From: an uncultured Solirubrobacterales bacterium
GTDB taxonomy: Bacteria > Actinomycetota > Thermoleophilia > Solirubrobacterales > 70-9
Length of the DNA: 64,000 nucleotides
Assembly (NCBI GenBank): GCA_963767285.1
Contig: CAVYDJ010000003.1
Span: 365,049-429,048 of the forward strand
Reading direction: 5' to 3'
In this document: positions 8,715-29,353 of the stretch, piece by piece
Layout: each line of letters opens with the position of its first letter
How positions within the stretch are numbered: the stretch's first letter is position 1
Program-made: the position numbers and the translations under genes
Notes under the pieces: model-generated
The model's database searches: none
What the model was told of the DNA's origin: nothing
Seen by the model: only the letters and a program-made list of their open reading frames with translations

Positions 8715-9953
8715 GTGATTTCGCGACGGATCGCGGTGGGGATCGCCGTATGGCTGACGCTCGGTGCGGCGACCGCCCAGGCCGACGCCGGCGAGGACGT
8801 CGTCTCCAGCAAGGTGGCGGCGCGCCCCGCGGCCGTGCGCGACTACTGGACGCCGGAGCGGATGCGCATGGCGAGCCCGGCGGACATGGTGGTGGACGCG
8901 GCCGGCGAGCTCGTGCGGGAGGCCGGCCAGCCGCGCGTGGCGACCGACGTCAGCGCGGCCAGTCAGAGCTTCCCCGAGCGGGTTCACGGCAAGGTCTTCT
9001 TCACGATCCCGGCCGGTTCCCAGCCCGGCGATTACGTCTGCTCGGCGACGGCCGTACGCTCGAACAGCCACACGCTCGCCTGGACCGCGGGCCACTGCGT
9101 CAACGACCCCGAGTTCGGGGGCGGCTTCGCCACCAACTGGACCTTCATTCCCGGTTACCTCAACGGCGAGGCGCCGTTCGGCGAGTGGCCGGCAACCGGT
9201 CTGCTGACGACGGCCGCCTGGGGCGAGGAGGCCAACATCCGCCAGGACCTCGGCGCCGCGGTCCTGGCACGCAATGCGGAGGGCCAGGGAGTCCAGGACG
9301 CGGTCGGCGCCCGTCCGATCGACTTCAGGCTGGCGCGCGACCAGCAGTTTGCGGCCTTCGGCTACCCGGCCCAACCGACCCTCTTCAATCCGACGTTCGA
9401 CGGCCAGCGGCTCTACTCGTGCCTCTCGCCCGTGACCGGATCCGACAATCCGCCCGGCGACGGCCCGGAGACGATGCAGATCGACTGCGACATGAGCGGC
9501 GGCTCCAGCGGCGGCGGCTGGGTGACCGCGAACGGCTCCGTCAACGGGCTGACCAGCTACGGCTACGAGCTCGACTTCGACCATCTCTACGGGCCGTACT
9601 TCGGGACCGAGGCGCGGAACCTCTACCACGAGGCCGCCGGTAAGGGGCAACGCTGCGGCGGCTTCGAGGTGACGAACCTCGGCGGCTCCGGACCCGACGA
9701 CTTCAGCGGCGGCGACGGACCCGACGCCTTCAAGGTCAAGGGCGAGGCCGATCGGGCCCGCGGCTTCGCCGGCGACGACATCGCCTGCGGCGGCGACGGT
9801 GACGACAAGCTGAAGGGCGGCGAGGATGCCGACACCCTGCGCGGCAGCGACGGCGACGACGTCCTCAACGGCGGCCCCGGCAACGACCTCTGCATCGGCG
9901 GCCCGGGCCGTGACCGTGGCCCCGGTTGCGAGGACAAGCGCCAGATCCCGTAG
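8715..9953 (+). CDS. Secreted trypsin-like (S1) serine protease with C-terminal Ca-binding GGxGxD repeats
   Basis: Signal peptide ISRRIAVGIAVWLTLGAATAQA. His motif WTAGHCV. Ser motif DCDMSGGSSGGGW. Tail GGSGPDDF...GGDGDDKLKGGEDADTLRGSDGDDVLNGGPGND. Confidence 0.75.
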   Translation: MISRRIAVGIAVWLTLGAATAQADAGEDVVSSKVAARPAAVRDYWTPERMRMASPADMVVDAAGELVREAGQPRVATDVSAASQSFPERVHGKVFFTIPAGSQPGDYVCSATAVRSNSHTLAWTAGHCVNDPEFGGGFATNWTFIPGYLNGEAPFGEWPATGLLTTAAWGEEANIRQDLGAAVLARNAEGQGVQDAVGARPIDFRLARDQQFAAFGYPAQPTLFNPTFDGQRLYSCLSPVTGSDNPPGDGPETMQIDCDMSGGSSGGGWVTANGSVNGLTSYGYELDFDHLYGPYFGTEARNLYHEAAGKGQRCGGFEVTNLGGSGPDDFSGGDGPDAFKVKGEADRARGFAGDDIACGGDGDDKLKGGEDADTLRGSDGDDVLNGGPGNDLCIGGPGRDRGPGCEDKRQIP

Positions 9954-14292: not shown

Positions 14293-15826
14293 TCAGCCGA
14301 GCAGGCTGCCGATCGCGTCGCCCGCCGCGTTCGCCCAGTCGACCAGCGGCGAGGGGATGATCCCGAAGAAGACCGTCGCCGCGGTGACCAGCAGGGTCAG
14401 GCCGAGGATCACCTTGCAGCGGGCGCCGGTCACCTCGGCGTCAGCCTCCTGCGAGCCGCCCGCGATCGCCGGAGCTGGGGCACCGGCCGCGGGTTCGGCG
14501 CCCGGGCGCATCCAGACGGCCGCGATCACCCGCAGGTAGTAGGCGAGCGAGATCATCGTCCCGATCGCGATCATCACGCCGAGCCAGGTGTAGTCGGCGG
14601 CGACCGCGGCCTCGATCAGATACAGCTTGCCGATGAAGCCAACCGTGCCCGGGGAGACCGGCGAGCGCCAGCATCGAGACGGTCAGCGCGGTCGCCAGGA
14701 AGGGCCGTTCGGCGCCCAGTCCCTGGACCGAGCGGATGTCGTCGCCGAACGCCGTCTCGCGCTCGCGGATCGTGATCACCGCGAACGCCCCCAGGTTCAT
14801 CAGCGCGTAGGCCGCGAGATAGAAGACCAGCGCATTCACGCCCGCCTCGCTGGCCGCGACCACGGCGACCATCATGTAGCCGGCCTGGGCGACGCTCGAG
14901 TAGCCGAGCAGGCGCTTGAGCGAGTTCTGACCCAGCGCGCCGGCGTTGCCGACCACGATCGAGACCGCCGCCAGCGCCGCCAGCGCCGGCCGCCAGTCAT
15001 CGGCCGCGGCGCCGAGCGCCACCTCGAAGAAGCGGACCAGGACGCAGAACACGGCGGCCTTGGTCGCCACCGACATGAACGCCGTCACCGGGGTCGGCGC
15101 GCCCTGATAGACGTCGGGCGTCCACTGGTGGAAGGGGGCGATCGAGAGCTTGAACGCGAGACCGGTGGCGGCCAGCGCGATCCCGATCAGCAGCAGCGGG
15201 TCGTCGACCACCGAGGTGCCGACCGCGGCGCGGATCCCCGAGAAGTCGGTCGACCCGGTCGCCCCGTAGACGAAGGCGAGCCCGTAGAGCAGCGTCGCCG
15301 AGCCCAGAGAGCCGATGATCAGGTACTTCAGCCCCGACTCGAGCGACTCCTTGCGCCGCAGCGCGGCGCCGCAGAGGACGTATAGCGGGATCGAGAGCAG
15401 TTCGAGGGCGACGAAGAACGCGACCAGGTTCTGGGCCTGGGTGATCATCGTCATCCCGAGCACCGAGCAGAGCAGCAGCGCCTGGAACTCGCCGTGGCCG
15501 CTCGGCCCCAGCGGCCGGTCGAAGGCCTGCTCGCGCCACGACAGCGGGATGCAGAAGGCAGCGGCGCCGATGCAGATCAGGCTGGTCGTGATCGCCAGGT
15601 CGTCGAGCCGCAGGGCGCCGGCGATCAGGTCCTTGTGGGCGCCCCACTGGGCGATCAGCAGCCCGGCGGTGACGCCGAGGGTGGCGAAGCCGACGATCGA
15701 GACGACGATCCGCTGCTGCTTCCGGCTGCCGAACAGGCCCGCGACGAGCGCCAGCACGGTCCCGGCGGTCAGCGCGATGATCGGCGAGATGCCCGCGTAG
15801 TTGATGTCGGGAGCGTTGAACTCCAT
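14293..15826 (-). pseudogene. nuoN: NADH-quinone oxidoreductase subunit N, interrupted by an apparent 1-nt insertion (+1 frameshift) at 14648-14654
   Basis: ORF 14441..15826 is NuoN up to ...MLALAGLPG, then turns into Arg-rich nonsense. The conserved continuation TVGFIGKLYLIEAAVAADYTWLGVMIAIGTMISLAYYLRV runs in the frame of ORF 14293..14577. Total length is 1534 nt (3n+1). Confidence 0.85.
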
Positions 15827-17319
15827 CAGCGCTCCGCCTCGGCCAGAACCTGTGATTCGCCGGTGGCCGCCTCGACCGCCGCCTCGACCGACTTCTCGCC
15901 CCGCTCCAGGATCAGGCCCGGATAGAACGCCAGGGCCACGATGATCGCCACCAGCGGCGCAAGGACGATCCCGTCGCGGACCCCGATCTCACGCGACTCG
16001 GCGCCCTCGGGGAGGCGGTTGTGCATCGCCCGCTGGTACATCCTCAGGCTGTAGAAGGCGGCGAGCGCGATCCCGATCGAGGCGACGAAGGCGAGGACGA
16101 TCTTCGACTGGAAGACGCCGTTGAGGATGTAGAACTCGCCGATGAAGTTGGCCGAGCCGGGGATCGCCAGGTTCGCCATCGCGATGACCAGGAACAGCGC
16201 CGCCAGGAAGGGCGCCCGCATCGCCTGGCCGCCCATCCGCGTCAGGTCCTCCGTCTTGAAGCGGTCGTAGAGGATCGCGATCACCATGAAAACGCCGGCG
16301 ACGACCAGGCCGTGGTTGACCATCTGCAGGACGGCGCCGTCGGCTCCGTCGGCGCGCAGGCTGAAGATCCCGATCGTGATGAAGCCGAGCTGCGCGATCG
16401 ACGAGTAGCCCGCGATCAGGCGGACGTTGGTCTGCGTGAACGCCATCACCGAGCCGTAGAGGATCGAGGCCAGCGCGACCAGCATGATCAGCTCCTGGAA
16501 CTCGGTGGTCGCCTCGGGGAAGAGCGGCAGCGCGACGCGCAAGAAGCCGTAGGCGCCGACCTTCGACAGGACTGCCGAGAGCAGGATCAGGACCGGCAGG
16601 GGAGCCGCCCGGTAGGCGTCGGGCATCCAGCCGTGGATCGGGAAGGCCGGCATCTTGACCAGGAAGGCCGCGGCGAAGAAGCAGAAGATCCACTCCTGGC
16701 TGCCGCTCGACAGCAGGTGCTGCGAGAGCACCGGGATCGAGAAGCTGAGCTCGCCGACCGAGTCCGACGCGAGGACCGCGGTCGCGATCGCGCCGACCAG
16801 CATCAGCAGCGAGCCGACGAGCGTGTAGACGATCATCTTCGTCGTCGCCGCGATCCGGTTCTCGCCGCCGAAGGTCCCGATCAGGAAGAAGAACGGGATC
16901 AGCATCAGGTCGAAGAAGAGGACGAACAGCAGCAGGTCCTGGGCGAGGAACGCGCCCAGCGCGGCGGTCCCGGCGAGGCCGACGAGGAAGTAGTAGAGCT
17001 TCTCGCGCTCGTCGCCCGGCTCGCCGCGAAGCGCCGACCAGAGCGTCACCGCAAACCAGAGCGCCGCCGTCAGCAGAACCAGGAAGACGCTGATCCCGTC
17101 GACGCCGAGGAAGTAGCGGACCCCGAGGTCGGGGATCCAGGACTCGTCGATCACGTGCTGCAGGCCGGCGGCATCGGGGTCGAAGTCGGCGACCAGCCCG
17201 ATCGCCAGCCCGAGCGTCACGAGGGCGCCGAGAACGGCCACCCAGCGCGCCGCCACCCGCGGCAGGAGCAGGATCAGAACTCCGGTGATCAGCGGCGTCC
17301 ACAGCAGCACGCTGAGCAT
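15826..17319 (-). CDS. nuoM: NADH-quinone oxidoreductase subunit M
   Basis: Starts MLSVLLWTPLITGVLILLLP at ATG 17319, overlapping the nuoL stop (TGATG). Antiporter-like 14-TM protein. Its stop overlaps the nuoN ATG (TGATG). Confidence 0.9.
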   Translation of the reverse strand: MLSVLLWTPLITGVLILLLPRVAARWVAVLGALVTLGLAIGLVADFDPDAAGLQHVIDESWIPDLGVRYFLGVDGISVFLVLLTAALWFAVTLWSALRGEPGDEREKLYYFLVGLAGTAALGAFLAQDLLLFVLFFDLMLIPFFFLIGTFGGENRIAATTKMIVYTLVGSLLMLVGAIATAVLASDSVGELSFSIPVLSQHLLSSGSQEWIFCFFAAAFLVKMPAFPIHGWMPDAYRAAPLPVLILLSAVLSKVGAYGFLRVALPLFPEATTEFQELIMLVALASILYGSVMAFTQTNVRLIAGYSSIAQLGFITIGIFSLRADGADGAVLQMVNHGLVVAGVFMVIAILYDRFKTEDLTRMGGQAMRAPFLAALFLVIAMANLAIPGSANFIGEFYILNGVFQSKIVLAFVASIGIALAAFYSLRMYQRAMHNRLPEGAESREIGVRDGIVLAPLVAIIVALAFYPGLILERGEKSVEAAVEAATGESQVLAEAER

Positions 17320-19325
17320 CAGTTGCTCACCGCCAGGAAGTAGACGCCGAGCGCCGCGAAGCCCCCGACGAGGAGTAGCGCGTAGGCGCGCACCAGACCG
17401 GACTGGGCGCCGCGGACGACCGAGCCGGCGCCCTTGACGACCCCGGTTGCGGCGCCGACGATCCCGTTGACGACGACCCGCTCGATGACCGCGTTGGCAA
17501 AGCGCCCGGTCGCGATCGCCGGCCGGTAGATCAGCGCGTCGATTACCTCGTCGAAGTACCACTTGTTGAGGAGGAAGCCGTGCAGGCGGCGGTACCGCTC
17601 GGCCATCCGCACCGTGACCCCGGGCCGCCGCACGTAGCAGTGGTAGGCGAACGCGATCCCGATGATCGAGATCGTGCCGCCGACGAGCAACCCGATCCAG
17701 GAGTCCGCGGTCGACGGCTCCTGGTGGTAGAGAGTCGAGCTCTCGAACGTCCCCGCGAGGAAAGTGGTGACGACGTGATCGACGCCCGGGACCTGCAGGA
17801 GGCCGGCGAACAGGGCGCCGAAGCCGAGGATCCCCATCGCGACCCGCATCGGCCATTCGCGCTCGGCGATGTGGTGCTCCTCACCTGGGAACCCGACGTC
17901 GACGTCTTCGGCCTCGCCGGTGTGCGGGTTGGTCGGCTCGGCGTGGTGCATGTGCCCCTGCTCGAGCTCCTCGGCCTCCTTGCACGGTTTACCGGCGGTG
18001 ACCCGGAAGCCGATCCGGAACGCGTAGAAGGCGGTCATCAGCGCCCCGATGTAGCCGCCGATCGCGAAGATCCAGTACATGCCGCCGCGGTTGGCGGCGA
18101 AGGCGAGGATCTCGTCCTTGGAGAAGAAGCCGGACGTCCCCGGGAAGGCCGCCAGCGCGAGGCAGCCGACCAGCAGCAGGGCCGACGTGAACGGCAGCGC
18201 CTTGCGGAAGCCGCTCATGTCGTCGACGTTCTGGTTGTTGGCCATCGCCGAGATCACCGAGCCGGCGGCCATGAACAACAGCGCCTTGAAGAAGGCGTGT
18301 GCCATCAGCATGAACAGGCCGCCGACGTAGGCGCCGATCGCGACGCCCATGATCATGTAGCCGATCTGGCTCATCGTGGAGTAGGCGATGATCCGCTTCA
18401 GGTCGGTGACCGCGAGCGCAATCGTCGCCGCGATCAACAGCGTCGCGAGGCCGACGAAGGCGGCGATGTCCGCGGCGGTCGGCGCGAGCTCGAAGAGCGG
18501 GAACATGCGGGCGATCAGATAGACGCCGGCGGTGACCATCGTCGCGGCGTGGATCAGCGCCGAGACCGGCGTCGGGCCCTCCATCGCGTCCGGGAGCCAG
18601 GTGTGGAACGGGACCTGGGCGGACTTCGCGAACGCGCCGACGCAGATCAGCAGGCAGATCGCGACCACCACGCCCTGGTTGGGGGAGAAGGTCTCACGGG
18701 CGGCGTCGAACGACGCCAGGTAGTCGAACGTCCCGAGCTCGCGGAAGACGAAGAAGGCGGCGAGCACGAGGCCGATGTCGCCGACGACGTTGATCACGAA
18801 CGCCTTCATGCCCGCCTTGGTCGCGGTCTCGCGCCGGTACCAGAAGCTGATCAGCGCGTAGGAGGCGAAGCCGACGAAGGCCCAGCCGACGATCAGCAGC
18901 ACGAAGTTGCCGGCCAGGATCAGCAGCAGCATCGAGAAGACGAAGAAGTTGAGGTAGGAGAAGAACCGCGCGTAGCCGCGGTCCGAGCCCATGTAGGCGA
19001 GCGAGTAGAGGTGGATCAGGGTCGAGATCCCCGTGACCACCAGGCACATGTAGACCGACAGCGGGTCCACCAGGATGTTGAGCTGGATGTCGAGCCCGCC
19101 CGCGGAGGCGTAGCTGTAGAGCGAGTCGGTGAGCTGGCGCTCCTCGACGGGGTGGTCGAGCAGCGCCAGCAGCGCGCCGATTGAGCAGGCGAAGGCGAGC
19201 GCGATCGCGCCGGTCCCGATCCAGGCAGGCGTGCGGCCCGGCATCGCGGCGCGGCCGAAGGCGATCAACATGCTGCCCGCGAGCGGGAGGACCAGCACGA
19301 GCCAGCCCCAGGTCGTCGCGCTCAT
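17319..19325 (-). CDS. nuoL: NADH-quinone oxidoreductase subunit L
   Basis: 668 aa. MSATTWGWLVLVLPLAGS..., an antiporter-like subunit with the long C-terminal lateral-helix region. Confidence 0.92.
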   Translation of the reverse strand: MSATTWGWLVLVLPLAGSMLIAFGRAAMPGRTPAWIGTGAIALAFACSIGALLALLDHPVEERQLTDSLYSYASAGGLDIQLNILVDPLSVYMCLVVTGISTLIHLYSLAYMGSDRGYARFFSYLNFFVFSMLLLILAGNFVLLIVGWAFVGFASYALISFWYRRETATKAGMKAFVINVVGDIGLVLAAFFVFRELGTFDYLASFDAARETFSPNQGVVVAICLLICVGAFAKSAQVPFHTWLPDAMEGPTPVSALIHAATMVTAGVYLIARMFPLFELAPTAADIAAFVGLATLLIAATIALAVTDLKRIIAYSTMSQIGYMIMGVAIGAYVGGLFMLMAHAFFKALLFMAAGSVISAMANNQNVDDMSGFRKALPFTSALLLVGCLALAAFPGTSGFFSKDEILAFAANRGGMYWIFAIGGYIGALMTAFYAFRIGFRVTAGKPCKEAEELEQGHMHHAEPTNPHTGEAEDVDVGFPGEEHHIAEREWPMRVAMGILGFGALFAGLLQVPGVDHVVTTFLAGTFESSTLYHQEPSTADSWIGLLVGGTISIIGIAFAYHCYVRRPGVTVRMAERYRRLHGFLLNKWYFDEVIDALIYRPAIATGRFANAVIERVVVNGIVGAATGVVKGAGSVVRGAQSGLVRAYALLLVGGFAALGVYFLAVSN

Positions 19326-19621
19326 CCCTTCAGCTCCCGGATCTCGTCGACGTCGAGGGCGATCTGGCGGCGGAACATGGCGACGATCAGGCCGAGCCCG
19401 ACGACCACCTCACAGGCCGCGACGACCATCACGATCAGCGCGAAGATCTGGCCCTCCTGGTTGCCGTTCGAGCGCGCGAAGGCGACCAGGGCGAGGTTGC
19501 CGGCGTTCAGCATCAGCTCGAGGCAGAGCAGGATCACCAGCGGGCTGCGCCGCAGGAGCACCCCGCACGCGCCGGTGGCGAAGAGGAGCGCTGAGAGGAC
19601 GAGGTACCAGGAGGTATCCAT
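19322..19621 (-). CDS. nuoK: NADH-quinone oxidoreductase subunit K
   Basis: 99 aa MDTSWYLVLSALLFATGACGVLLRRSPLVILLCLELMLNAGNLALVAF. The ORF extension to 19942 overlaps nuoJ. Confidence 0.9.
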   Translation of the reverse strand: MDTSWYLVLSALLFATGACGVLLRRSPLVILLCLELMLNAGNLALVAFARSNGNQEGQIFALIVMVVAACEVVVGLGLIVAMFRRQIALDVDEIRELKG

Positions 19622-19623
19622 GA

Positions 19624-20187
19624 TCAGCCGGCCTCGCCCGAGTCGACACCCGGCACGCCCGGAGGCGAAGCTGAGGACGTGGCCGGTTTGTTCCGGCCCG
19701 CGAGCACGATCGCGCCGACGGCGGCGATCAGCAGCAGCATGGAGGCGGCCTCGAAGGCGACCAGGAAGCGCTCGAGCAGGAGCCGCCCGATCTCGCCCGG
19801 CGAGCCGAAGCCGGCCGGGATCACCGGGCCCTCGGTCTCGATCGACACGAGCGAGGTGCCGACGACGGCGATCGAGACCTCCACAAACAGGGCGGCAGCC
19901 AGCAATGGGGCGAGGAAGCGCTGCCCCGGGATCGGCTCCCACAGCGGCTCCTCGATCCCGCCGACGTAGGCGGCGACGAACAGGTAGAGGACCATGACCG
20001 CACCGGCATAGACGACGATCTGCGCCGCCGCCAGGAACTCCGCGTGCAGGAGCAGGAACAGCCCGGCCAGCGAGATCAGGTGGACGATCAGCGCCAGCAC
20101 GCTGTAGAAGGGATTGCGAAGCGCGATCACCGCGATCGCGCCGCCAAGCGCACCAATCGCCCCGGCGAAGAACGCCACTTGAACCAC
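19624..20187 (-). CDS. nuoJ: NADH-quinone oxidoreductase subunit J (C-terminal tail encoded by repeat copy A)
   Basis: GTG start 20187. MVQVAFFAGAIGALGGAIAVIALRNPFYSVLALIVHL. Tail is GRNKPATSSASPPGVPGVDSGEAG. Confidence 0.9.
   Translation of the reverse strand: MVQVAFFAGAIGALGGAIAVIALRNPFYSVLALIVHLISLAGLFLLLHAEFLAAAQIVVYAGAVMVLYLFVAAYVGGIEEPLWEPIPGQRFLAPLLAAALFVEVSIAVVGTSLVSIETEGPVIPAGFGSPGEIGRLLLERFLVAFEAASMLLLIAAVGAIVLAGRNKPATSSASPPGVPGVDSGEAG
19647..19694 (-). repeat. nuo-operon repeat, copy A (in frame in the nuoJ 3' end)
   Basis: Minus strand reads GGAACAAACCGGCCACGTCCTCAGCTTCGCCTCCGGGCGTGCCGGGTG. Confidence 0.8.
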
Positions 20188-20229
20188 TACGCGGCCACCT
20201 CCTCGGCTTCGCCTGCGGGGGTGCCGCGG
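20181..20229 (+). repeat. nuo-operon repeat, copy D (nuoI-nuoJ spacer, includes the nuoJ SD and start)
   Basis: Plus strand reads GAACCACTACGCGGCCACCTCCTCGGCTTCGCCTGCGGGGGTGCCGCGG. Confidence 0.8.
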
Positions 20230-20249
20230 TTAGCCGGCGAGCTGCTCAC

Positions 20250-20810
20250 TCACTCCCCTTCCCGCCGCAGGGGGTTGCGCTCGAGCGGCTCGGCGAGCAG
20301 CATCTCCTTGGTGAAGATCAGGTCGCCACGGTCGTAGTCGGCCATCTCGTACTCGTGGCCCATCGTGATCGCGTCGAACGGGCAGGCGACCTCGCAGTAG
20401 CCGCAGAAGATGCAGCGGGCGAGGTTGATCTCATAGACGGCGGCGTAGCGCTCGCCGGCCGAGACGCGATCGGCCGGGTCGTTCTCGGCGGCGACGACCC
20501 GGATGCAGTCCGCCGGGCAGGCCGCGGCGCACAGCGAGCAGCCGACGCACTTCTCCAGGTCCGTGTCCTCGAACTTGTGCAGCTTGTGGCGGCCGCGGAA
20601 GCGCGGGTAGACCGGCGTCTTCTCCTCCGGGTACTGGATCGTCATCGGGCCTTCGAAGACGCGCGCCAGCGTCGTCTTCAGGCCGCGCAGGGTCTCACCG
20701 AAGGCGCGGTAGGCGCCCTTCGCGCCGCCGGGCTCCGGCCCGCGCTGGACCGAGACGACCTCGTCGGCGTCCTTCAGATAGGGGAACTCGGACTTGGCTT
20801 CTTCGCTCAT
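20250..20810 (-). CDS. nuoI: NADH-quinone oxidoreductase subunit I (2x[4Fe-4S] ferredoxin)
   Basis: ATG 20810 overlaps the nuoH stop (ATGA). [12 protein letters not shown] and [12 protein letters not shown] cluster motifs. Confidence 0.92.
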
Positions 20811-21805
20811 GCCACCACCACCAGCACCGCCGTGACGAGGATGTTCAGGGTCGCCAGCGGCAGCAGCACCTTCCAGCCGAGGCTCATCAGCTGGTCGTAG
20901 CGCAGCCGGGGCAGGGTCGCGCGGACCCAGATGAAGACGACGATCAGGGCGAAGATCTTGGCCAGCATCCAGATCGGGTCGAGCCACTCGGGACCGGGGC
21001 CCATCCAGCCGCCGAGGAAGAAGGCGACCGCGATCCCCGAGATGACGAAGATCTCCAGGTACTCGGCGAGCAGGAAGGAGGCGAAGCGGGTGCCGCCGTA
21101 CTCGGTCTGGTACCCCTGAACCAGCTCCGCGTCCGCCTCGGGCAGGTCGAACGGAGTGCGGTTGCTCTCCGCGAACCCGGCGAGCATGAAGACGATGAAG
21201 CCGACGAACTGGGGGATGATGTTCCAGACCTCGCCCTGGGCCTCGACGATCGAGACCAGCGAGAGCGAGCCGGACATCAGGATCACGCCGAACAGCGAGA
21301 GCCCCATCGCGACCTCGTAGGAGATCAGCTGGGCGGCGCCCCGCATCGCGCCGAGGAAGCTGTATTTCGAGCCCGATGACCAGCCGGCGATCAGCAGGCC
21401 GTAGAAGGCGAACGAGCCGAACGCGAAGAAGTAGAGGACGCCGATCGGGACGTCGATCCCATACCAGCCGACCCCGTCGTGGACGTCGCCGAAGGGCAGG
21501 ATCGCGATCGTCGTGATCCCGGAGAAGATCACCAGCGCCGGCCCGAGCGCGTAGAGGAACGGGATCGCCGCGTCGGGGCGGAAGAACTGCTTGCCGGCCA
21601 GCTTGATGATGTCGGCGAGCGGTTGCATCAGCCCGACCGGCCCGACCCGGTTGGGCCCGTAGCGGTGCTGGAAGCGGCCGATCGCCTTGCGCTCGACCAC
21701 CGTCAGGACCGGGACGATCATGAACACGACCAGGAAGATCAGGATCGACTTCACGACCATGATCCAGGTCGCCTCGGTGAAGCTGGTGTCGGCGAGGGGA
21801 ATCAC
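20807..21805 (-). CDS. nuoH: NADH-quinone oxidoreductase subunit H
   Basis: GTG 21805 overlaps the nuoG stop (GTGA). [29 protein letters not shown] signature. Confidence 0.92.
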
Positions 21806-21847
21806 GGCCCGGCCACCTCCTCGGCTCCGCCTGCGGGGGTGCCGGGG
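21798..21847 (+). repeat. nuo-operon repeat, copy E (encodes the last 14 aa of NuoG; includes the nuoH SD and start)
   Basis: Plus strand reads GGAATCACGGCCCGGCCACCTCCTCGGCTCCGCCTGCGGGGGTGCCGGGG. Confidence 0.8.
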
Positions 21848-24270
21848 TCAGCCGAGATTCGAGTGATCTCCACCGTTTCCGCGCCGTTGAAGACGTTCGC
21901 GTTGTGCTGCGCGGTGCCCTCGATCAGGAAGGCCGCGCCGGGTCGAATGCGCTCGCGGAGGGTGACCCGTGCACGAACGCTCGTCCCGTTCGAGCGCACG
22001 TTGACCTCGTCGCCGTTGGCGAGGCCGAGCTTCTTCGCGTCCGAAGGTGCCAGCTCCACCCGCTGCTCGGGTGCGAGGAACTTCAGCGCCACATTGCGGT
22101 CGGTGACCTCGTTCGCCCACAGGTCGCGATACGTCCCGAGGCGCAGGCCCCCATTCGCGGACGGCGCGGCGACGGTCGCCGGCGTCTCGGTCTCAGGCGG
22201 CTTGAACGACGACGCCGCATCCCGGTCCTGCCAGCGGACTCCGGTGCCGCCGATCTCCTTGGGGTTCAGGCCGCCGTAGAACGGGACCTCATTGGCGATC
22301 GCTTCGAGTGCCTCGGGGGCCGAGTCGATCTCGGTTTCGTCGCCGAGGCGGGCGCTGAGCTCGGCAAGGACCTGCCAGATCGGGCGGACCTCGCCGGGGC
22401 GGGGGACGGAGGGCCGGAGGCGCTGGAGGCGGCCGTCCGGGTGGGTGACCGTGCCCTCCTTCTCGGCGTAGGCCTCGGCGGGGAACACGATGTCCGCCGC
22501 CTTCGTGGAGGCGTCCTCGAAGCTCGAGATCGCGATCACGGTGCGGGCCTGGTTCAGCGCCTTCGCCCAGCCCGGACCGTCGGGGAGGTCGCGGATCGGA
22601 TCGGCCTGCAGCAGGATGACGCCGTCGAGCTCGCCGGAGGCGAGGCCCTGCTTGATCGCTTCGAGGTCGTCGCCGGAGCCCGCGGCGGTGAGCCCGGGAC
22701 CGGCGCCGGGGACACAGCCGACCTCGCGGATTCCGCGGGCGTTGGCGCCGTCGGGGACGGAGAAGACGCCGCCGCCCGCTCCGGCGCACTTGAGCTCGGC
22801 GGCGCAGTTGCGTAGCGCGTTAAGGGCGCCTTCGCCGTTCGGTCCGCGGCCGATCCGCTCGCCCCAGATGATCAGCGTCCTGCCCGGGCGCAGCTCGCCG
22901 GCGAGGCGCTCGGCGTCCCCCACATAATCGCCCCGCACGCCCGGAGCCGAAGGCGAGGACGTGGCGGGAGTTGTTCCGTGGCTGAGCTGCGCGGCTAGTG
23001 CAGCCAGGAACGCCGCCGCTTCGCCGGGGGCGTAGCGGGCGGTCTCCTCGGCGCCGCCGTCAAGCGCCGTCGGGCGGTCCGAGGCGATCACCAGACGCAG
23101 CTGGTGGTGGCGAACCGCCTTGCGCAGCCGCAGATCCAGGATCGGCATCGAGTTCAGCGGGTCGGCTCCGATCAACAGCACCGATTCGACCTCGTCGATC
23201 GCGGCGATCGGGGCCCCGAGCTCGGGTGAGGAGAGCGCCGCCAGCGGCCCGGCCGGGAGCTCGTCGATCGCCGTTGCGTTGCCACCGGCGATCCGCTGCA
23301 CCAGGTACGCCTCCTCGTTGGAGGCCGGGCCGCCGGCGATCGCGGCGATCCGGCCGGCGCCGAGCTTCGCCGCGGCGACCTCGAGCGCCTGCTCCCAGCC
23401 GGCCTTGTTTCCCGCGATTCGCGGCTCGATGATCCGGTCCTCGGAGGAGATCATCTGGAAGCCGAAGCGGCCCTTGTCGCAGAGCCAGCCGTTGTCGACC
23501 TCGTGGTTGTCACGCGCCAGGACGCGCTGGACCCGCTCGTCGCGGACCGTGAACTTGACGTTGCATTGGCTCGGGCACAGCGTGCAGATCGAGCCCGCGT
23601 CCTCGATGTCCCAGGGCCGGGCGCGGAACCGGTAGGCCTCGGCGGTGAGGGCGCCGACGGGACAGAGCTCGATGATGTTGCCGTGGAAGGGGGCGATGTA
23701 GGGGCGGTCGTTGAAGGTGCCTACATAGCTGTTCGACCCCCGCTCGAGCAGCTGCAGCTGCTCGTCCTCGGCAACCTCCTGGCTGAAGCGCACGCAGCGG
23801 TAGCAGAGGATGCAGCGCTCGCGGTCGATCCGGACCAGCGGCGAGAGCGGCACCGGCTTGCGGAAGTGGCGTTTCGGGTCCGTGACCCGGCTGCGGCCCG
23901 GCCCCCAGCCCATCGCGATGTCCTGCAGGGGGCACTCGCCGCCCTTGTCGCAAACCGGGCAGTCGAGCGGGTGGTTGACGAGCAGGAACTCGACCACCGC
24001 GTTCTGGGCCTCGATCACCCGGTCGGTGCGGGTGTAGACGACCATCCCGTCGCGCACCGGGGTCGAGCAGGCGGTCTGGAGCTTGGGGATCCCCTCGATC
24101 TCGACCAGGCACATCCGGCAGGCCCCGACCGGCCCGCCGAGCTTCGGCTCGTAACAGAAGACCGGGATCTCGACGTCGCCGCCCTTCGCGGCGTCGACGA
24201 GCATCTCGCCCTCGGGGGCGTTCACCTCGACGCCGTCGACGACGAGCGTGATCTCGGGCCGCTCGGTCAT
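21802..24270 (-). CDS. nuoG: NADH-quinone oxidoreductase subunit G (contains repeat copies C and E in frame)
   Basis: ATG 24270 overlaps the nuoF stop (ATGA). N-terminal 2Fe-2S/4Fe-4S motifs ([37 protein letters not shown]). 822 aa. Confidence 0.92.
22931..22977 (-). repeat. nuo-operon repeat, copy C (in-frame insertion inside nuoG)
   Basis: Minus strand reads GGAACAACTCCCGCCACGTCCTCGCCTTCGGCTCCGGGCGTGCGGGG. Confidence 0.8.
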
Positions 24271-25532
24271 GCCGCCAGGACCTCCGGCTGCTCCATGGCT
24301 TCCTCGAACTCCGAGCGGAACTTCTTCACCATCGCGCCGACCGGCATCGCCATCGAGTCGCCGAGCACGCAGAGGCAGTTGCCGATGATGTTCTCCTGCA
24401 CGCCGGCGACGACCTCGAGGTCGATCGGCGTCGCCTCGCCGCGGGTGATCCGCTCCAGCATCTTCACCGTCCAGTTGGTGCCCTCCCGGCAGGGAGTGCA
24501 CTTCCCGCAGGATTCGTGGTGGTAGAAGCGCGCCGTGCGCAGCGCAAGCTTGGGGATCGAGACGGTGTCGTCGGCGACGATGATCGACCCCGAGCCGAGC
24601 ATCGAGCCGGCCTCGGCCATCGCCTCGAAGCTGTAGGGCAGGTCGAGCTCGGCCTCGGTCAGGACGGGCGACGACGAGCCGCCCGGGAACCAGGCCTTCA
24701 CCCGCCGGCCCTCGGGCAGGCCGCCCGCGAGGTCGAAGATGATCTCCCGCGAGGGGACCCCGAGCTCGACCTCGTAGTTGCCGGGCCGCTCCACGCAGCC
24801 GGAGATCGAGACGACCTTCGTGCCCGGCGACTGTTCGGTGCCGAATCCCTTGAACCAGTTCGAGCCGTTGTTGACGATGTGGGGCAGGTTCGAGAGCGTC
24901 TCGACGTTGTTGATCAGCGTCGGGCCGCCGTACAGGCCCTGGATCGCCGGGAACGGCGGCTTCAGCCGAGGGTTGCCGCGCTTGCCCTCGAGCGCGTCGA
25001 GCAGCGCCGTCTCCTCGCCGCAGATGTAGGCGCCGGCGCCGCGGTGGACGACCAGCTCCACCCTGGTCCGGGCGCCGAGGATGTTGGGCCCGAGGTAGTC
25101 GGCCTCGTACGCCTCGGCGACGGCGCGGTCGAGGATGTCAGCGATCTCCCAGTACTCGCCGCGGATGAAGATGAACGCGTGCTGGGCGCCGACCGCGATC
25201 GCCGCGATCGCGACGCCTTCGATCAGCTGATGGGGGTTCTTCATCATCAGCTCGCGGTCCTTGAAGGCGCCGGGCTCCGACTCGTCGGCGTTGCAGCAGA
25301 CGTACTTCGCCATCTCGCCGCGCGGCAGGAAGGAGCCCTTCTTGCCCATCGAGAAGCCGGCGCCGCCGCGCCCGCGCAGGCCAGAGTCCTCGAACCCGGC
25401 GATCAGGTCGCCGGGCTCGAGCTCCCTGACCGCGCGCTCCAGCGCCTTGTAGCCGCCGAGCTCGCGGTAGCGATCGATCGACGCCAGCTCCGGGTCGTCG
25501 ATATGGCGGAAGAGGAGCCGCGTTTCAGGCAA
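24267..25532 (-). CDS. nuoF: NADH-quinone oxidoreductase subunit F (NADH/FMN-binding)
   Basis: GLRGRGGAGFSMGKK, the FMN/NADH motifs, and ESCGKCTPCREG 4Fe-4S motif. Confidence 0.93.
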   Translation of the reverse strand: MPETRLLFRHIDDPELASIDRYRELGGYKALERAVRELEPGDLIAGFEDSGLRGRGGAGFSMGKKGSFLPRGEMAKYVCCNADESEPGAFKDRELMMKNPHQLIEGVAIAAIAVGAQHAFIFIRGEYWEIADILDRAVAEAYEADYLGPNILGARTRVELVVHRGAGAYICGEETALLDALEGKRGNPRLKPPFPAIQGLYGGPTLINNVETLSNLPHIVNNGSNWFKGFGTEQSPGTKVVSISGCVERPGNYEVELGVPSREIIFDLAGGLPEGRRVKAWFPGGSSSPVLTEAELDLPYSFEAMAEAGSMLGSGSIIVADDTVSIPKLALRTARFYHHESCGKCTPCREGTNWTVKMLERITRGEATPIDLEVVAGVQENIIGNCLCVLGDSMAMPVGAMVKKFRSEFEEAMEQPEVLAA

Positions 25533-26250
25533 CGTCCGTCCCCTCCATCCGCGGGTCGGGATCGGGCTCCGCGCCCCCCGCCGCCGGGCGCCTGCTGAGC
25601 GCCTTCTCGTCCGGCGGCGGATTGCCGGCGCGCAGGGCGTCGATTGCGGCGACCGCGTCGGCCGCGTCCAGCGGCCCGTAGTAGCGCTCGTCGATCGAGA
25701 CCATCGGCGCCAGGTCGCATGCGCCCAGGCACTCGAAGCCCTTGACGAAGAACTCGCCGTCCGCCGAGCTGGCCCCGTGGTGGGCGGCCTCGTGGTGGTC
25801 GGCGCCGGCCGCCTCGCAGAACGACTCCAGCAGCTCGTCGCCGCCGTTCATCCAGCAGGAGATGTTGGTGCAGACCAGGACCCGGTGGCGGCCGACCGGC
25901 TGAGTGGCGAACAGGTCGTAAAACGAGGCGACCGACTCCAGGTAGGCGGGGGTGACTCCCATCACCGCGGCGGCCTGGCGGATCCCGTCCGGCGTGCACC
26001 AGCCGTAGTGGCGCTGGACCGCCCACAGCGCCGGGATCGACGCCGAGCGCAGCTGCGGGTAGCGCGACATCGCCGACTCGATCTGCTCCTGGAGCTCCGG
26101 CGGGATGTCGACCTCGTGCAGCTCCGGCACTCCCTCGGCGTCGGAGGGGCGCATGGAGGCGATCAGCCGCTTGCGCTCCTCGGCGGTGAGGTCGTCCGTC
26201 GGCTCGAGCAATGAGAGCTCGGGCTGCTCAGAGGTCACGTCCTCGACCAC
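25525..26250 (-). CDS. nuoE: NADH-quinone oxidoreductase subunit E (2Fe-2S)
   Basis: VCTNISCWMNG...ECLGACDLAPM thioredoxin-like 2Fe-2S motif. GTG start 26250. Confidence 0.9.
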   Translation of the reverse strand: MVEDVTSEQPELSLLEPTDDLTAEERKRLIASMRPSDAEGVPELHEVDIPPELQEQIESAMSRYPQLRSASIPALWAVQRHYGWCTPDGIRQAAAVMGVTPAYLESVASFYDLFATQPVGRHRVLVCTNISCWMNGGDELLESFCEAAGADHHEAAHHGASSADGEFFVKGFECLGACDLAPMVSIDERYYGPLDAADAVAAIDALRAGNPPPDEKALSRRPAAGGAEPDPDPRMEGTDVA

Positions 26251-26313
26251 CGCGCACGCCCGGAGGCGAAGCCGAGGACGTGGCGCGAGTTATTCACGTG
26301 GCGCGAGATATTC
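26250..26313 (-). repeat. nuo-operon repeat, copy B (nuoD-nuoE spacer) with an 18-nt internal tandem duplication
   Basis: Minus strand reads GAATATCTCGCGCCACGT GAATAACTCGCGCCACGTCCTCGGCTTCGCCTCCGGGCGTGCGCGG. Confidence 0.8.
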
Positions 26314-26314
26314 C

Positions 26315-27604
26315 TCATCGATCCACCCCGCCGAGGATCGGATCCAACATCCCGAGGTTCTGGATCAGGTCGGCGACGTACCCGCCGATGCACATGTCGC
26401 GCAGGCTCTGGAGGTTGACGAACGAGGGGTCCCGGAAGTGGACCCGGGCCGGCTTCGCCGAGCCGTCGGCGAGGATGTAACAGCCGAGCTCGCCGCGCGG
26501 CGACTCGATCGGGTTGTAGATCTCGCCCGGCGGAACGCGGAAGCCCTCGGTGACGAGCTTGAAGTGATGGATCAGCGCCTCCATCGAAATCGCGAGCTCC
26601 TCGCGCGGCGGCAGCACGACCTTGCGGTCGTCGGCGATCCACGGTCCCTCGGGCAGCCCGTCGAGGCACTGCTCGATGATCCGCACCGACTCGCGCATCT
26701 CCTGCATCCGGCAGCGGTAGCGGTCATAGCCGTCGCCGACCGTGCCGACCGGGATCTTGAAGTCGACGTCGCCGTAGGCGAGGTAGGGGGCGGCCTTGCG
26801 GAGGTCCCACGGCTCGCCCGAGGCGCGCAGCAGCGGCCCGGTCACACCGAGCTCGAGCAACCGCTCGCGGGGAACGATCCCGACCCCTTTCGTCCGCGAC
26901 AGCCAGATCTCGTTGCGGTCGACCAGCGCCTCGTACTGGCTGATCCGGGTCGGCATGTCGTCCAGGAAGGCGCGGAGCTTCTTCTCGAACCCGACCGGGA
27001 TGTCCTCGAAGACCCCGCCGACCTGGAAGTAGCGGGTGTGCATCCGCTGGCCGGTCGACATCTCGAACAGGTCGATGATCGTGTCGCGCTCGCGCAGCGC
27101 GTACCAGAGCATCGAAACCGCGCCCAGGTCAAGCGCCGTAGTCCCGAGCCAGAACAGGTGCGAGTGGATCCGGTTGAGCTCGAGGTGGATCATCCGCAGG
27201 TACTTCGCGCGGGGCGGGATCTCGAGCTCGAGCATCCGCTCGACGGCGCCGCAGAAGGCCTCCATGTTGAAGAAGTAGGACAGGTAGTCCATCCGCTCGA
27301 TGAACGGGATCACCTTCCAGTAGCTCTTGTCCTCGCAGCTCTTCTCGATCCCGGTGTGGACGTAGCCGACGATCGGCTTGAGGTCGATCACCTCCTCGCC
27401 CTGGAGGCTGACCAGCAGGCGCAGCACCCCGTGCGTGGCGGGGTGGTGCGGCCCCATGTTCACGGTCATCAACTCGTGCTCGGGCTCGAGGGTCTCCCCG
27501 GCCTCGGTGGTCTCGATCGGCGAGGTGCCGATCACCGTTGCCGTCGTCGCGGCGATCACGTCCCCGCCCCTTGCCGGCGCGCTGCCTACTTCCTCGACCG
27601 CCAC
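26315..27604 (-). CDS. nuoD: NADH-quinone oxidoreductase subunit D
   Basis: MTVNMGPHHPATHGVLRLLVSLQGEEV...GGVDR C-terminus. GTG 27604 overlaps the nuoC stop by 1 nt (TAGTG); an alternative GTG lies about 45 nt downstream. Confidence 0.88.
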   Translation of the reverse strand: MAVEEVGSAPARGGDVIAATTATVIGTSPIETTEAGETLEPEHELMTVNMGPHHPATHGVLRLLVSLQGEEVIDLKPIVGYVHTGIEKSCEDKSYWKVIPFIERMDYLSYFFNMEAFCGAVERMLELEIPPRAKYLRMIHLELNRIHSHLFWLGTTALDLGAVSMLWYALRERDTIIDLFEMSTGQRMHTRYFQVGGVFEDIPVGFEKKLRAFLDDMPTRISQYEALVDRNEIWLSRTKGVGIVPRERLLELGVTGPLLRASGEPWDLRKAAPYLAYGDVDFKIPVGTVGDGYDRYRCRMQEMRESVRIIEQCLDGLPEGPWIADDRKVVLPPREELAISMEALIHHFKLVTEGFRVPPGEIYNPIESPRGELGCYILADGSAKPARVHFRDPSFVNLQSLRDMCIGGYVADLIQNLGMLDPILGGVDR

Positions 27605-28179
27605 TACTCCTCCGACCAGCCCGGAGCCGAGCGCTCGTTGTGGGTGAAGATCACCGGCTCGCCGCCGATCGGGAAGTCGCGGCGCTGCGGCCACCCGACG
27701 TAGACCTCCGGCATCAGGATCCGGCGCAGGTCCGGGTGGCCGCGGAAGAAGATCCCGAAGAAGTCGTAGACCTCGCGCTCCTGGAAGTCGGCGGTCGGGA
27801 ACAGCGGCACGCAGCTCTCGATCGACGGCAGCAGCATCCCGTCGACCTCCTCGGTCTCCCCGGTCGACGGTCCGGAGGGCGCGCCGGGATCGGGGATCGC
27901 CGCCCGCACCCGGATCCGCTCGACCCGGTCGCGGTTGAGGAGCTCGTAGTGGACCCCGAAGCGCGGCTCGGCCGGCAGGTAGTCGACGCCGTGGAGGCTC
28001 GCGAGGAACCTGTACTCCTGGCCCGGCGTATCCCGCAGCCAGCGCAGCACCTCGAGGACCTGGTCGGGGTCGACGATCAGGCACGCCTGTCCGTGCTCGT
28101 GGTAGGTGCCGAGGACGCTGTCGGGGTGGGCGTCGCGCAGCTCGCCGGCGATCAGCTCGAGGCCGGGCGCGTCAGGCAC
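27604..28179 (-). CDS. nuoC: NADH-quinone oxidoreductase subunit C
   Basis: FPTADFQEREVYDFFGIFFRGHPDLRRILMP signature. Start GTG 28179 (MPDAPGLELIAGEL) chosen because upstream codons lie within repeat copy F. Confidence 0.85.
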   Translation of the reverse strand: MPDAPGLELIAGELRDAHPDSVLGTYHEHGQACLIVDPDQVLEVLRWLRDTPGQEYRFLASLHGVDYLPAEPRFGVHYELLNRDRVERIRVRAAIPDPGAPSGPSTGETEEVDGMLLPSIESCVPLFPTADFQEREVYDFFGIFFRGHPDLRRILMPEVYVGWPQRRDFPIGGEPVIFTHNERSAPGWSEE

Positions 28180-28183
28180 GGTC

Positions 28184-28235
28184 AGAACAACTCCCGCGGC
28201 TGCTCGGCTTCGCCTCCGCTGCCGCGGGGTGCGGG
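28184..28235 (+). repeat. nuo-operon repeat, copy F (nuoB-nuoC spacer), most diverged
   Basis: Plus strand reads AGAACAACTCCCGCGGCTGCTCGGCTTCGCCTCCGCTGCCGCGGGGTGCGGG. It shares GAACAACTCCCGC with copy C and CTCGGCTTCGCCTCC with A and B. Confidence 0.65.
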
Positions 28236-28274
28236 CCGACGCCCACACAGGCGACTGGGACGGCAGCTTCGTCG

Positions 28275-28997
28275 CTACTTCGCATCGCGCACCGCCTCAC
28301 GCGCCTGCGCGTAAGCCGCCTCGGCCGCCTCGGAAGGCTGGCCGGCGATCACGTCGTCGCGCGCCCATTCCTCGGTGCCGATCGCGTTGTAGCGGCGGCG
28401 CCAGCCCATGTCCGGGTGCCCCTGGATCTGGTGCTGCAGCTTGCCGAAGCCGTAGAAGAGCGCCTCGGGTCGGGGCGGACAGCCGGGCACGTGGATGTCG
28501 ACCGGCATGAACTTGTCGGCGCCCTGGACGACCGCGTAGTTGGCGAACATCCCTCCCGACGAGGAGCAGGCGCCCATCGAGATCGCCCACCGCGGCTCGA
28601 GCATCTGGTCGTAGAGGCGGCGGATGACCGGCGCCATCTTGATCGAGACGCGGCCCGACAGGATGATGAAGTCGGCCTGGCGCGGCGAGGCCCGCAGCGC
28701 CTCCGCCCCGAACCGCGCCTGGTCGTTGCGGGGGGACCCGACCGCGGCGATCATCTCGATCGCACAGCAGGCGAGCCCGAACGTCAGCGGGAACATCGAG
28801 TTCGAGGCTCCCCAGGCGAGCAGCTTCTCGAACGACGTCGTCAGCACCGCCTGCGAGACGTGCTCCTCGAGGTCCTCATCGGGGAGGTCGCCGCGAAGCA
28901 GGTCGCGGGCGCGCAGCTGGCGGACCCGCAGGTGCTCGGGGGAGCCCGGCTCGGCGAGCGGGGACAGCGCCCGCAGCTTCTCGCGCCTTACCTCCAA
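28275..28997 (-). CDS. nuoB: NADH-quinone oxidoreductase subunit B
   Basis: [10 protein letters not shown]...[16 protein letters not shown]...[11 protein letters not shown]...[13 protein letters not shown]3 stays coding-like up to TTG 28997 (10-nt overlap with nuoA), so the start is provisional. Confidence 0.85.
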
Positions 28998-29353
28998 TCG
29001 AGCGCACCCCGGCGCCAGACGTAGCCCAGCGCGACGAGCAGCAGCGTCACGAAGATCAGCAGCTCGACGAGTACGAAGACCGAGTCGGCCGCCTGGAAGA
29101 TCACCCCGACCGGATAGAGGAAGACGACCTCGATGTCGAACAGGATGAAGAGCATCGCGATCATGTAGAAGCTGACCCCGAAGCGGAAGGTTCGGGAGAC
29201 CTCGCTCGGCAGCCCGCACTCGTACGGCTCGGTCTTCACCGAGCGGCCGCGGACGCCCTTGCGGCCGATGATCACGTTCAGCAGGGCGAAGGCCCCGCCG
29301 ACGATCGCGCCGAGGGCGATAAAGACGAGGACGGGCAGGTAACTCTCCAGCAC
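28988..29353 (-). CDS. nuoA: NADH-quinone oxidoreductase subunit A
   Basis: 121 aa, three TM helices, EPYECGLP and [13 protein letters not shown] signatures. Confidence 0.9.

Follow-up and report, generated by a model that had tools for sequence, protein, structure and literature searches.

The nuoA-N operon of an uncultured Solirubrobacterales bacterium carries six copies of a short repeat that belongs to a hairpin family spread over the genomes of this order. The operon lies in a stretch of 64,000 nt (contig CAVYDJ010000003.1, positions 365,049 to 429,048), which is called the window here and has a G+C content of 70.7%. The repeat represents a previously undescribed hairpin repeat family of soil Actinomycetota (Solirubrobacterales), and the nuo operon is a recurrent hot spot for it. 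With a probability of about 0.65, we regard the six copies as members of a non-autonomous, dispersed palindromic family of a Solirubrobacterales clade, similar to the repetitive extragenic palindromic (REP) sequences, the Rickettsia palindromic elements (RPE) and the mycobacterial interspersed repetitive units (MIRU). The family is vertically inherited, constrained and enriched in nuo, and at nuo junctions it would have been built into translational coupling.

Six copies of the repeat in the nuo operon

The operon encodes the 14 genes of NADH:quinone oxidoreductase on the minus strand (14294-29353) and was assigned from Pfam domains and from the gene calls of the source contig L106 (ENA ERZ25039516 contig_31929, 505,949 bp; window position = 31806 - L106 coordinate). 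An initial annotation, made from the letters of the window, had described six copies of a repeat in this operon, and all six quoted strings matched the window exactly in position and strand. Relative to the nuo mRNA, copies A (19647-19694, minus strand), B (26250-26295, minus strand) and C (22931-22977, minus strand) are sense, while copies D (20181-20229, plus strand), E (21798-21847, plus strand) and F (28184-28235, plus strand) are antisense. All copies are single and none is tandem.

An nhmmer profile of the six copies recovered them in the window at E = 9e-13 to 6e-9, with the next match at E = 0.26. A covariance model was trained on 112 copies of other genomes and run on the whole window with filters off. 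It returned the same six copies (E = 3.5e-18 to 6e-9), followed by only two weaker matches, a fragment of 14 nt (E = 0.018) and a full-length match (23582-23632; E = 0.02) that was not convincing as a copy. Neither the profile search nor the unfiltered covariance-model search revealed a seventh copy in the 64 kb, which agrees with the inspection by eye in the initial annotation. The repeat family is genuine and does not reflect chance similarity. A repeat finder applied to the window also grouped copies A, C and B as one family. Copy F is degenerate and scored 38.9 bits with the covariance model, compared with 62-71 bits for the other five.

All six copies fall within 8.6 kb of the operon. By scan-statistic arithmetic, the chance that six random copies in 64 kb all lie within one 8.6-kb span is about 2e-4. 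Five of the six are located at cistron junctions (B/C, D/E, G/H, I/J and J/K), and only copy C is truly protein-internal. The gene calls confirmed the tight joins described earlier for the nuo genes. All neighbouring pairs overlap by 1-10 nt, or are 2 nt apart in the case of nuoJ/K, with three exceptions. These three real spacers, nuoB/C (95 nt), nuoD/E (79 nt) and nuoI/J (62 nt), contain one copy each. The three other copies are in frame, one inside NuoG, one in the NuoG C-terminal tail and one in the NuoJ C-terminal tail. In this genome, all three real intercistronic nuo spacers and the C-terminal tails of NuoG and NuoJ are accounted for by the element.

The repeat is a hairpin with a covarying stem

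The anatomy of the element was derived from an alignment of 121 copies that was anchored on the invariant core. The unit consists of a 38-nt bulged hairpin and a weak A-rich 5' head, GAAYAAC, which together make 48 nt or 16 codons. The head is usually present and carries 0.5-0.9 bit per position. Information content is raised from about position -19 to +28 and is flat beyond. The hairpin reads C-S-S-G, a bulged C, CAC-S-TCC, TC, GGC-TTC-GCC, T-S-C, GGG-S-GTG and C-S-S-G, and its tip on the antisense strand is GCGAAGC. The centre of the hairpin (TCCTCGGCTTCGCCT-S-CGGG) is near-invariant in both orientations, in coding and non-coding copies alike.

Across the 14 pairs of the stem, 98.3% of the cells were paired, and this value dropped to 37-58% when the partner was slid by 1-3 columns. 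Double-sided changes were counted 149 times in 8 of the 14 pairs, a number that was reached by 0 of 500 shuffles. At the pair -2/+19, which is left free (S...S) in the search pattern, 53 copies have C-G, 67 have G-C and a single one has a mismatch. The outer-stem pairs, which lie beyond the search pattern, flipped between C-G and G-C at ratios of 79:32 and 62:44. This covariation proves the hairpin, which thermodynamics alone does not. Folding z-scores of single copies were only -1 to -1.9, and that of copy E was +0.9, because the background has 71% GC.

No Rfam family matched the element when the nuo region was searched at a permissive E-value, which returned noise only. An intrinsic terminator was considered and rejected. 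No T run was found 3' of the hairpin in either orientation, so that the element would be a GC-rich hairpin without a U tract, and copies occur inside essential ORFs (open reading frames).

The family is dispersed over Solirubrobacterales genomes

The representative genomes of GTDB were scanned with a degenerate 28-mer core. The matches listed comprise at least 105 stretches with the exact 28-nt core, almost all from Solirubrobacterales metagenome-assembled genomes and often from many contigs of one genome. A second scan of JGI metagenomes with the 28-mer yielded 84 contigs. When the 400-nt flanks were clustered, 218 copies resolved into about 126 distinct sites. Most 8-kb loci contained one copy only. 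The non-nuo flanks, about 800 kb in all, contained 10 extra copies, from which the density can be extrapolated to roughly 1 copy per 50-100 kb. The element is thus a generic dispersed palindromic repeat, because it is scattered genome-wide in many Solirubrobacterales genomes. The earlier statement that the repeat is found only in the nuo operon is correct for the 64-kb window but not for the genomes, and the statement that all copies cluster in one operon is contradicted by the approximately 126 sites sampled.

Among the matches listed, a single exact core came from outside Actinomycetota-labelled genomes (L053 2651-2682; UCIA01000003.1, labelled Rhizobiales bacterium AFS083231). Its outer stem and head are unlike those of the family. 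This match could stem from a mislabelled or contaminated assembly, or it could be a distant relative.

The nuo operon accounted for 5 of the 105 genome loci (among the matches listed) and 5 of the 84 metagenome loci, together 10 of 189. About 5% of the sampled copies are therefore found in about 0.3% of the genome, an expectation that assumes a genome of 4-6 Mb. This corresponds to a 15-20-fold excess (Poisson probability about 1e-8). The merged I/J-J/K site of nuo formed the largest flank cluster and was recovered most often. Beyond the copy by which a locus was recruited, the five genome nuo loci hold 6 more copies in 40 kb, compared with 10 in about 800 kb elsewhere. The initial annotation had reserved the label of a generic REP or miniature inverted-repeat transposable element (MITE) for a repeat scattered over the genome with no operon bias. 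The scatter was observed, but so was the bias towards nuo.

The gene context of 118 copies was classified by local frame scoring based on GC3, the G+C content of third codon positions. This home-made heuristic replaced a stop-to-stop ORF caller that had missed many nuo genes. Approximately 71 copies lie in or between co-directional genes, with 35 in sense and 36 in antisense orientation. Convergent genes flank 14 copies and divergent genes flank 3. In about 25 cases, the hairpin starts 2-16 nt past a stop codon. An in-frame position inside a protein was assigned to about 29 copies, and about 12 make up C-terminal tails in the preferred frame. Together with the covarying hairpin, this had been overlooked in the window-based reading: at least about a quarter of the copies elsewhere are in frame in housekeeping proteins.

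One reading frame is used per orientation. Antisense copies are in phase 0 in 18 of 19 internal cases, and sense copies in 11 of 16. The five remaining sense internal copies are probably shadow-frame miscalls. Sense copies encode (P)ATSSASP(P/A)GV(R/P)G, and antisense copies encode (D)PGTP(G/A)GEAE(E/D)VAG. The hosts of internal copies include HypE, ArgC, UvrC, CarB, FtsK, Der, an Lhr-type helicase, a geranylgeranyl-reductase family protein and GcvT, as well as SMC and FtsY, which were identified by inspecting translations. C-terminal tails were found in TrpF, citramalate synthase (CimA) and an aminotransferase, and another copy is positioned just past the infA stop codon.

Two-unit tandem arrays occur at a few loci. 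They are located at L170 about 639-740 (element-sense coordinates; unit 49 nt), at L168 802-895 (unit 66 nt, each closed by its own stop codon) and at L029 5294-5414 (unit 86 nt). These arrays resemble variable-number tandem repeats and recall MIRU loci.

Orthologous nuo sites reveal inheritance, constraint and turnover

The history of the nuo copies was followed in six operons, those of the window and of loci L102, L017, L080, L055 and L076. A junction is given as not covered where the sampled locus ends before it. The B/C copy is degenerate and antisense in the window, and this junction is empty in L102. The D/E copy is sense in both the window and L102. The E/F junction holds an antisense variant in L102 and L017. 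It is empty in the window, where a degenerate extra copy was sought and not found. L080, L055 and L076 were not covered at these three junctions, nor was L017 at B/C and D/E. In the NuoG loop, the copy is sense in the window and antisense in L076, and the loop is short in L102, L017 and L080 (L055 not covered). At G/H, the copy is antisense in the window, L055 and L076, and the site is empty in L017 and L080. At I/J, antisense copies are present in the window, L017, L080 and L076, and L055 is empty. At J/K, the copy is sense in the window, L055 and L076, and absent from L017 and L080. The last three junctions were not covered in L102.

Several sites have stems of their own. A rare GCGG/CCGC stem at I/J is common to four genomes (window, L017, L076 and L080). 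The E/F variant CGGTCGCC is identical at 38 of 38 positions between L017 and L102, and the L102 orthologue of copy B has the same CGCG stem. These shared site-specific stems argue for inheritance from a common ancestor, followed by losses. The initial annotation had raised the question of lineage-specific insertions. The sites do vary between filled and empty from genome to genome, but the shared stems speak for common ancestry.

Orthologous nuo hairpins were 94% identical overall, with 145 of 152 positions identical where the search pattern gives no bias. In the same genomes, four-fold degenerate sites of NuoH were 69-76% identical. In the tails of NuoG and NuoJ, the residues next to the element are free to diverge. 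The higher identity of the hairpin compared with four-fold sites indicates that retained copies are under nucleotide-level constraint, or possibly that partial gene conversion takes place, yet every copy is dispensable in one lineage or another. Taken at the level of sequence, the comparison shows copies that are vertically inherited, constrained at the nucleotide level and occasionally lost.

The matrix of filled and empty sites implies gains or losses of copies. Empty G/H junctions read ...GAGAAGGC-ATGA-TCC, and the filled junction is 54 nt longer with the xTGA overlap kept. NuoG with an empty site ends in ...EKA or ...EKL in L017 and L080, with an ATGA or TTGA overlap. Net insert sizes of filled over empty sites were 54 nt for G/H, 36 nt for J/K and about 36 nt for E/F. 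In the case of J/K, the NuoJ tail with copy A is 12 codons longer than the empty NuoJ tails of L017 and L080.

In the NuoG loop, the copies of the window (22931-22977) and of L076 (1060-1105) point in opposite directions, and both inserts measure 63 nt between conserved anchors. Opposite orientations in one loop suggest that the hairpin was inverted in place or that a hot spot was hit by a further insertion. In L017, L102 and L080, this loop contains a 33-nt segment encoding GPDPAPEGP, which could be a deletion remnant.

Features of the individual nuo copies

Two of the antisense copies of the window bring GGAGG close to a start codon. Copy E is translated as the last 15 codons of NuoG (21802-24270). 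It places GGAGG 10 nt before the GTG of NuoH (20807-21805) at 21805, and this GTG overlaps the NuoG TGA (GTGA). Copy D occupies the spacer between NuoI (20250-20810) and NuoJ (19624-20187), with GGAGG 10 nt before the NuoJ GTG at 20187. The Shine-Dalgarno-like bases are paired in the predicted fold. A bridging mini-ORF of 20 codons (20187-20249, minus strand; GTG...TAG, VSSSPANRGTPAGEAEEVAA) runs through copy D. It begins with a GTG immediately after the NuoI TGA and ends with a TAG that shares bases with the NuoJ GTG (TAGTG). The frame and the TAG/GTG overlap are kept in L076, L080 and L017. In L017, the I/J spacer is about 420 nt long (about 1361-1737), and the open frame through the element ends on the same TAG/GTG overlap with NuoJ, so that the bridging ORF is much longer than the 20 codons of the window. 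The third antisense copy, F, is situated in the spacer between NuoB (28275-28997) and NuoC (27604-28179). Its covariance-model match spans 28184-28231 (E = 6e-9). Copy F has a perfect 8-bp outer stem (CCCGCGGC...GCCGCGGG) and ends 5 nt before the NuoC GTG at 28179.

Copy B is a sense copy in the spacer between NuoD (26315-27604) and NuoE (25525-26235) and scored 70.6 bits with the covariance model. Counted from the first base of the NuoD TGA, the 5' base of its hairpin (26250-26287) follows 30 nt downstream. Candidate NuoE starts, a GTG at 26250 and a GTG at 26235, are located at or just past its 3' arm. Copies B and F have no start codon in the open frame and are without a bridging ORF. Reading of the sequence directly 5' of copy B revealed a partial duplication (26296-26313, minus strand), and the profile gave weak partial matches at 26296-26314. 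The 12-mer CTCGCGCCACGT, comprising the 5' arm and the stem start, is present there twice and flanks GAATAA. The duplication resembles an incomplete second unit or the scar of a slippage event.

Copy C is inserted in frame into a variable loop of the molybdopterin-like domain of NuoG. It encodes 16 residues and has a compensated inner-stem variant, GCC-TTC-GGC. Copy A is in frame in the C-terminal tail of NuoJ past the Pfam domain (GRNKPATSSASPPGVPGV...), and the NuoJ stop lies 2 nt before the NuoK ATG at 19621. The other genes of the operon, all on the minus strand, are NuoA (28988-29353), NuoF (24267-25532), NuoK (19322-19621), NuoL (17319-19325), NuoM (15826-17319) and NuoN (14294-15826).

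A model for the nuo copies and its alternatives

We propose that the element spread ancestrally by a putative mobilising mechanism. Copies would have survived only where genes stayed intact, namely 2-16 nt past stop codons, in co-directional gaps, in C-terminal tails and in flexible protein loops. Inside proteins, just one frame per orientation is tolerated. In the polycistronic nuo mRNA, each copy would fold as a stable hairpin. In the antisense copies, GGAGG is part of the 3' arm and stands 10 nt ahead of the NuoH and NuoJ starts. The same distance between GGAGG and the downstream start was found in the E/F copy of L102 and L017. The ribosome-binding site would become accessible only during translation of the NuoG tail (copy E) or of the 20-codon bridging ORF (copy D), and this unmasking by the upstream ribosome, as expected of translational coupling, would tie together the synthesis of neighbouring subunits. 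For the sense copies B and A, hairpins placed after a stop codon or in a protein tail, the role would be to stabilise the mRNA or to pause ribosomes.

A number of observations weigh against this proposal. The sampled loci showed neither a mobilising enzyme nor a target-site duplication or recent transposition event, and the filled and empty G/H, J/K and E/F sites also lacked a target-site duplication. We infer mobility only from the dispersal of the element and from its filled and empty sites. The figure of roughly 50-100 copies per genome is an extrapolation and not a count, and the GC3-based frame scoring includes some shadow-frame miscalls, for example the sense phase 2 cases. The T·G "pair" of columns 19-38 is invariant and becomes an A·C mismatch on the antisense strand. 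Moreover, a centre that is equally invariant in both orientations is not explained by a simple RNA hairpin and suggests gene conversion or recognition of the DNA itself. GGAGG occurs only in the CACC/GGTG subtype, which makes up 53 of the 121 copies. Its spacing to a start codon was observed at only about four independent junctions (nuo E/F, G/H and I/J, and L028) and is not statistically significant. At element-free junctions of L017, L080 and L102, ATGA, TTGA or TGATG overlaps already provide tight coupling. Since relatives also lack several of the copies, none of the nuo copies is essential. Donation of a ribosome-binding site was tried as a role for the whole family and rejected. It cannot be the general function, because GGAGG is confined to one subtype.

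Part of this evidence would fit a recognition site at the DNA level. The protein that binds it could be a domesticated HUH/RAYT-like transposase, gyrase or a topoisomerase as with the REP sequences and bacterial interspersed mosaic elements (BIME) of E. coli, or a nucleoid protein. The excess in nuo would then arise because a long operon with heavy transcription needs this protein, and effects on RNA and translation would be secondary. Such a site would explain why the asymmetric centre hardly varies, whatever the orientation and whether or not the copy is coding, why orientations relative to transcription are split 35:36, and why orthologous copies are constrained well past synonymous sites. 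The antisense tip GCGAAGC, which is the sequence of a DNA mini-hairpin of exceptional stability, and the REP-like anatomy of an A-rich single-stranded head followed by a bulged hairpin are in line with it. However, no candidate protein was found. A tblastn search with IS200 TnpA and E. coli RAYT, a weak test with approximate queries and a small sample, gave 0 matches in 1.19 Mb of sampled DNA. The head is not the GTAG/CGTC tag of known REPs, and the copies are mostly singletons instead of inverted pairs. We consider a DNA site of this kind unlikely. Two inverted pairs were observed, one at L085 that flanks a gene for a small secreted-looking protein and one at L064 in SMC and FtsY, and neither has a transposase between its copies. 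The mycobacterial topoisomerase I site (CGCTTC/G) was rejected as a candidate, as the consensus tip GGCTTC does not match it. Purely selfish or neutral DNA is more improbable still. Under this assumption, the excess in nuo would result from insertion preference or tolerance, and the conservation from gene conversion or repeated re-insertion. The patchy presence among closely related nuo operons, the empty junctions that function with simple overlaps, the opposite orientations in the NuoG loop of the window and L076, and the tandem duplications at some loci would all be expected. Stem variants shared by orthologues at I/J and E/F nevertheless oppose both homogenising conversion and independent insertion. 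Pairing is preserved by compensatory changes, and the flanking tail residues are free to diverge but the element is not.

Two further explanations were practically eliminated by the family-wide data. All six copies of the window are in nuo, and nuo was the most frequent site sampled, as would be expected of a nuo-specific cis-regulatory element. This is refuted by the approximately 95% of sampled copies that reside in unrelated genes, including infA, trpF, uvrC, carB and ftsK as well as der, smc, ftsY, argC, gcvT and hypE. The single frame per orientation and the recurring peptides could likewise point to a conserved peptide module, with selection on the protein and DNA similarity as a by-product. 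But many copies are intergenic or lie past stop codons between convergent genes, and copies B, D and F of the window are intergenic. In addition, the peptides read from the two orientations are unrelated, conservation extends to synonymous positions, and the stem covaries as base pairs and not as codons. We give this idea hardly any credence.

Beyond the inherited and constrained family that we favour, the hairpin may itself be a selected cis-element. It would be the DNA or RNA site of a dedicated putative protein, and the complex I operon and essential genes would have recruited it more than once. We offer this only tentatively, as a possibility with the odds against it. If true, the site would set subunit stoichiometry, the stability of mRNA segments or local DNA topology, and a selected role would explain an element identity of about 94% where synonymous sites reach only about 70%.

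Relation to known repeat families

Searches of the literature gave no description of palindromic or REP repeats from Solirubrobacterales or Conexibacter. The closest analogues are REP sequences and RPE as much as MIRU, because the unit is a hairpin with a covarying stem and many copies are in frame.

REP sequences and BIME of Enterobacteria and Pseudomonas, which are associated with RAYT transposases, are likewise imperfect bulged palindromes of 20-40 nt with a short conserved single-stranded head. Their copies also number dozens to hundreds, come in both orientations and are vertically inherited at orthologous sites. Like the Solirubrobacterales element, they prefer transcribed regions after stop codons and between cistrons and rarely lie between divergent genes. 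REPs have known roles as stabilisers of mRNA 3' ends and as protein-binding sites. In contrast to the GTAG/CGTC head of REP, the Solirubrobacterales element has the head GAAYAAC. REPs are extragenic by definition, whereas at least about a quarter of the Solirubrobacterales copies are translated. BIME and REPIN are paired, but the copies described here are mostly single and belong to the phylum Actinomycetota, and the weak search mentioned above found no RAYT match in 1.19 Mb.

MIRUs, going back to Supply et al. in 1997, are reportedly actinobacterial repeats of 40-100 bp between operon cistrons, with small ORFs that abut or overlap the flanking stop and start codons. They have one orientation relative to the operon, are not known to form hairpins and are typically tandem. 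The likeness to MIRUs drawn in the initial annotation was borne out by the intercistronic placement and in part by the bridging ORF, which copy D has but copies B and F lack, and by the two-unit arrays at L029, L168 and L170. The bias towards nuo also held, but the exclusivity did not. The differences listed there, both orientations and in-frame coding copies, are real. The Solirubrobacterales element further differs in its covarying hairpin and in being mostly single, and its in-frame protein insertions are frequent.

RPE are inserted in frame into unrelated housekeeping genes, encode a peptide in a fixed frame and are kept between related species (PMC10969869). The Solirubrobacterales element is also found in frame, in a fixed frame and with a conserved peptide in unrelated host proteins. 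However, RPE are about 100-150 bp long compared with 38-48 nt, belong to another lineage and share no sequence similarity, and many of the Solirubrobacterales copies are intercistronic. Prokaryotic MITEs (Correia, ERIC, QMITE, Chunjie) are non-autonomous and can lie inside operons that stay intact, and in-frame fusion with ORFs is possible (PMC10969869). The element described here is similarly non-autonomous, dispersed and tolerated inside operons and ORFs. It is much shorter than MITEs, and no terminal inverted repeats around an internal segment, target-site duplication or parent insertion sequence were recognised.

The new family extends the short list of bacterial palindromic repeats inside protein-coding sequence to a poorly studied but abundant soil order. 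One tiny unit joins the post-stop hairpin of REP, the bridging ORFs and occasional tandem arrays of MIRU, and the in-frame peptides of RPE in essential proteins. It accounts for odd spacers, C-terminal tails and loop insertions in annotated Solirubrobacterales NuoG, NuoJ, UvrC, CarB and FtsK. The element can mislead gene callers and assemblers, and it serves as a lineage marker. Its constraint, its compensatory stems and its excess in complex I make it a test case for the question whether long operons have domesticated such repeats for the coupling of translation or the architecture of their mRNA.

Other repeats in the window

Three repeats of a different kind were observed outside the nuo operon. 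Two 260-nt segments (53184-53443 and 54174-54433), 990 nt apart, are 77% identical and are probably paralogous neighbouring genes. At 51982-52092, three to four tandem 33-nt units (ACGCCGCCGTCGAGCGG...GACGCCGCCG) presumably correspond to an 11-residue protein repeat. Repeats with a period of 27 nt at 9678-9887 are rich in GGC and GAC codons (GGxGxD-like), which suggests a putative calcium-binding RTX-type repeat protein.

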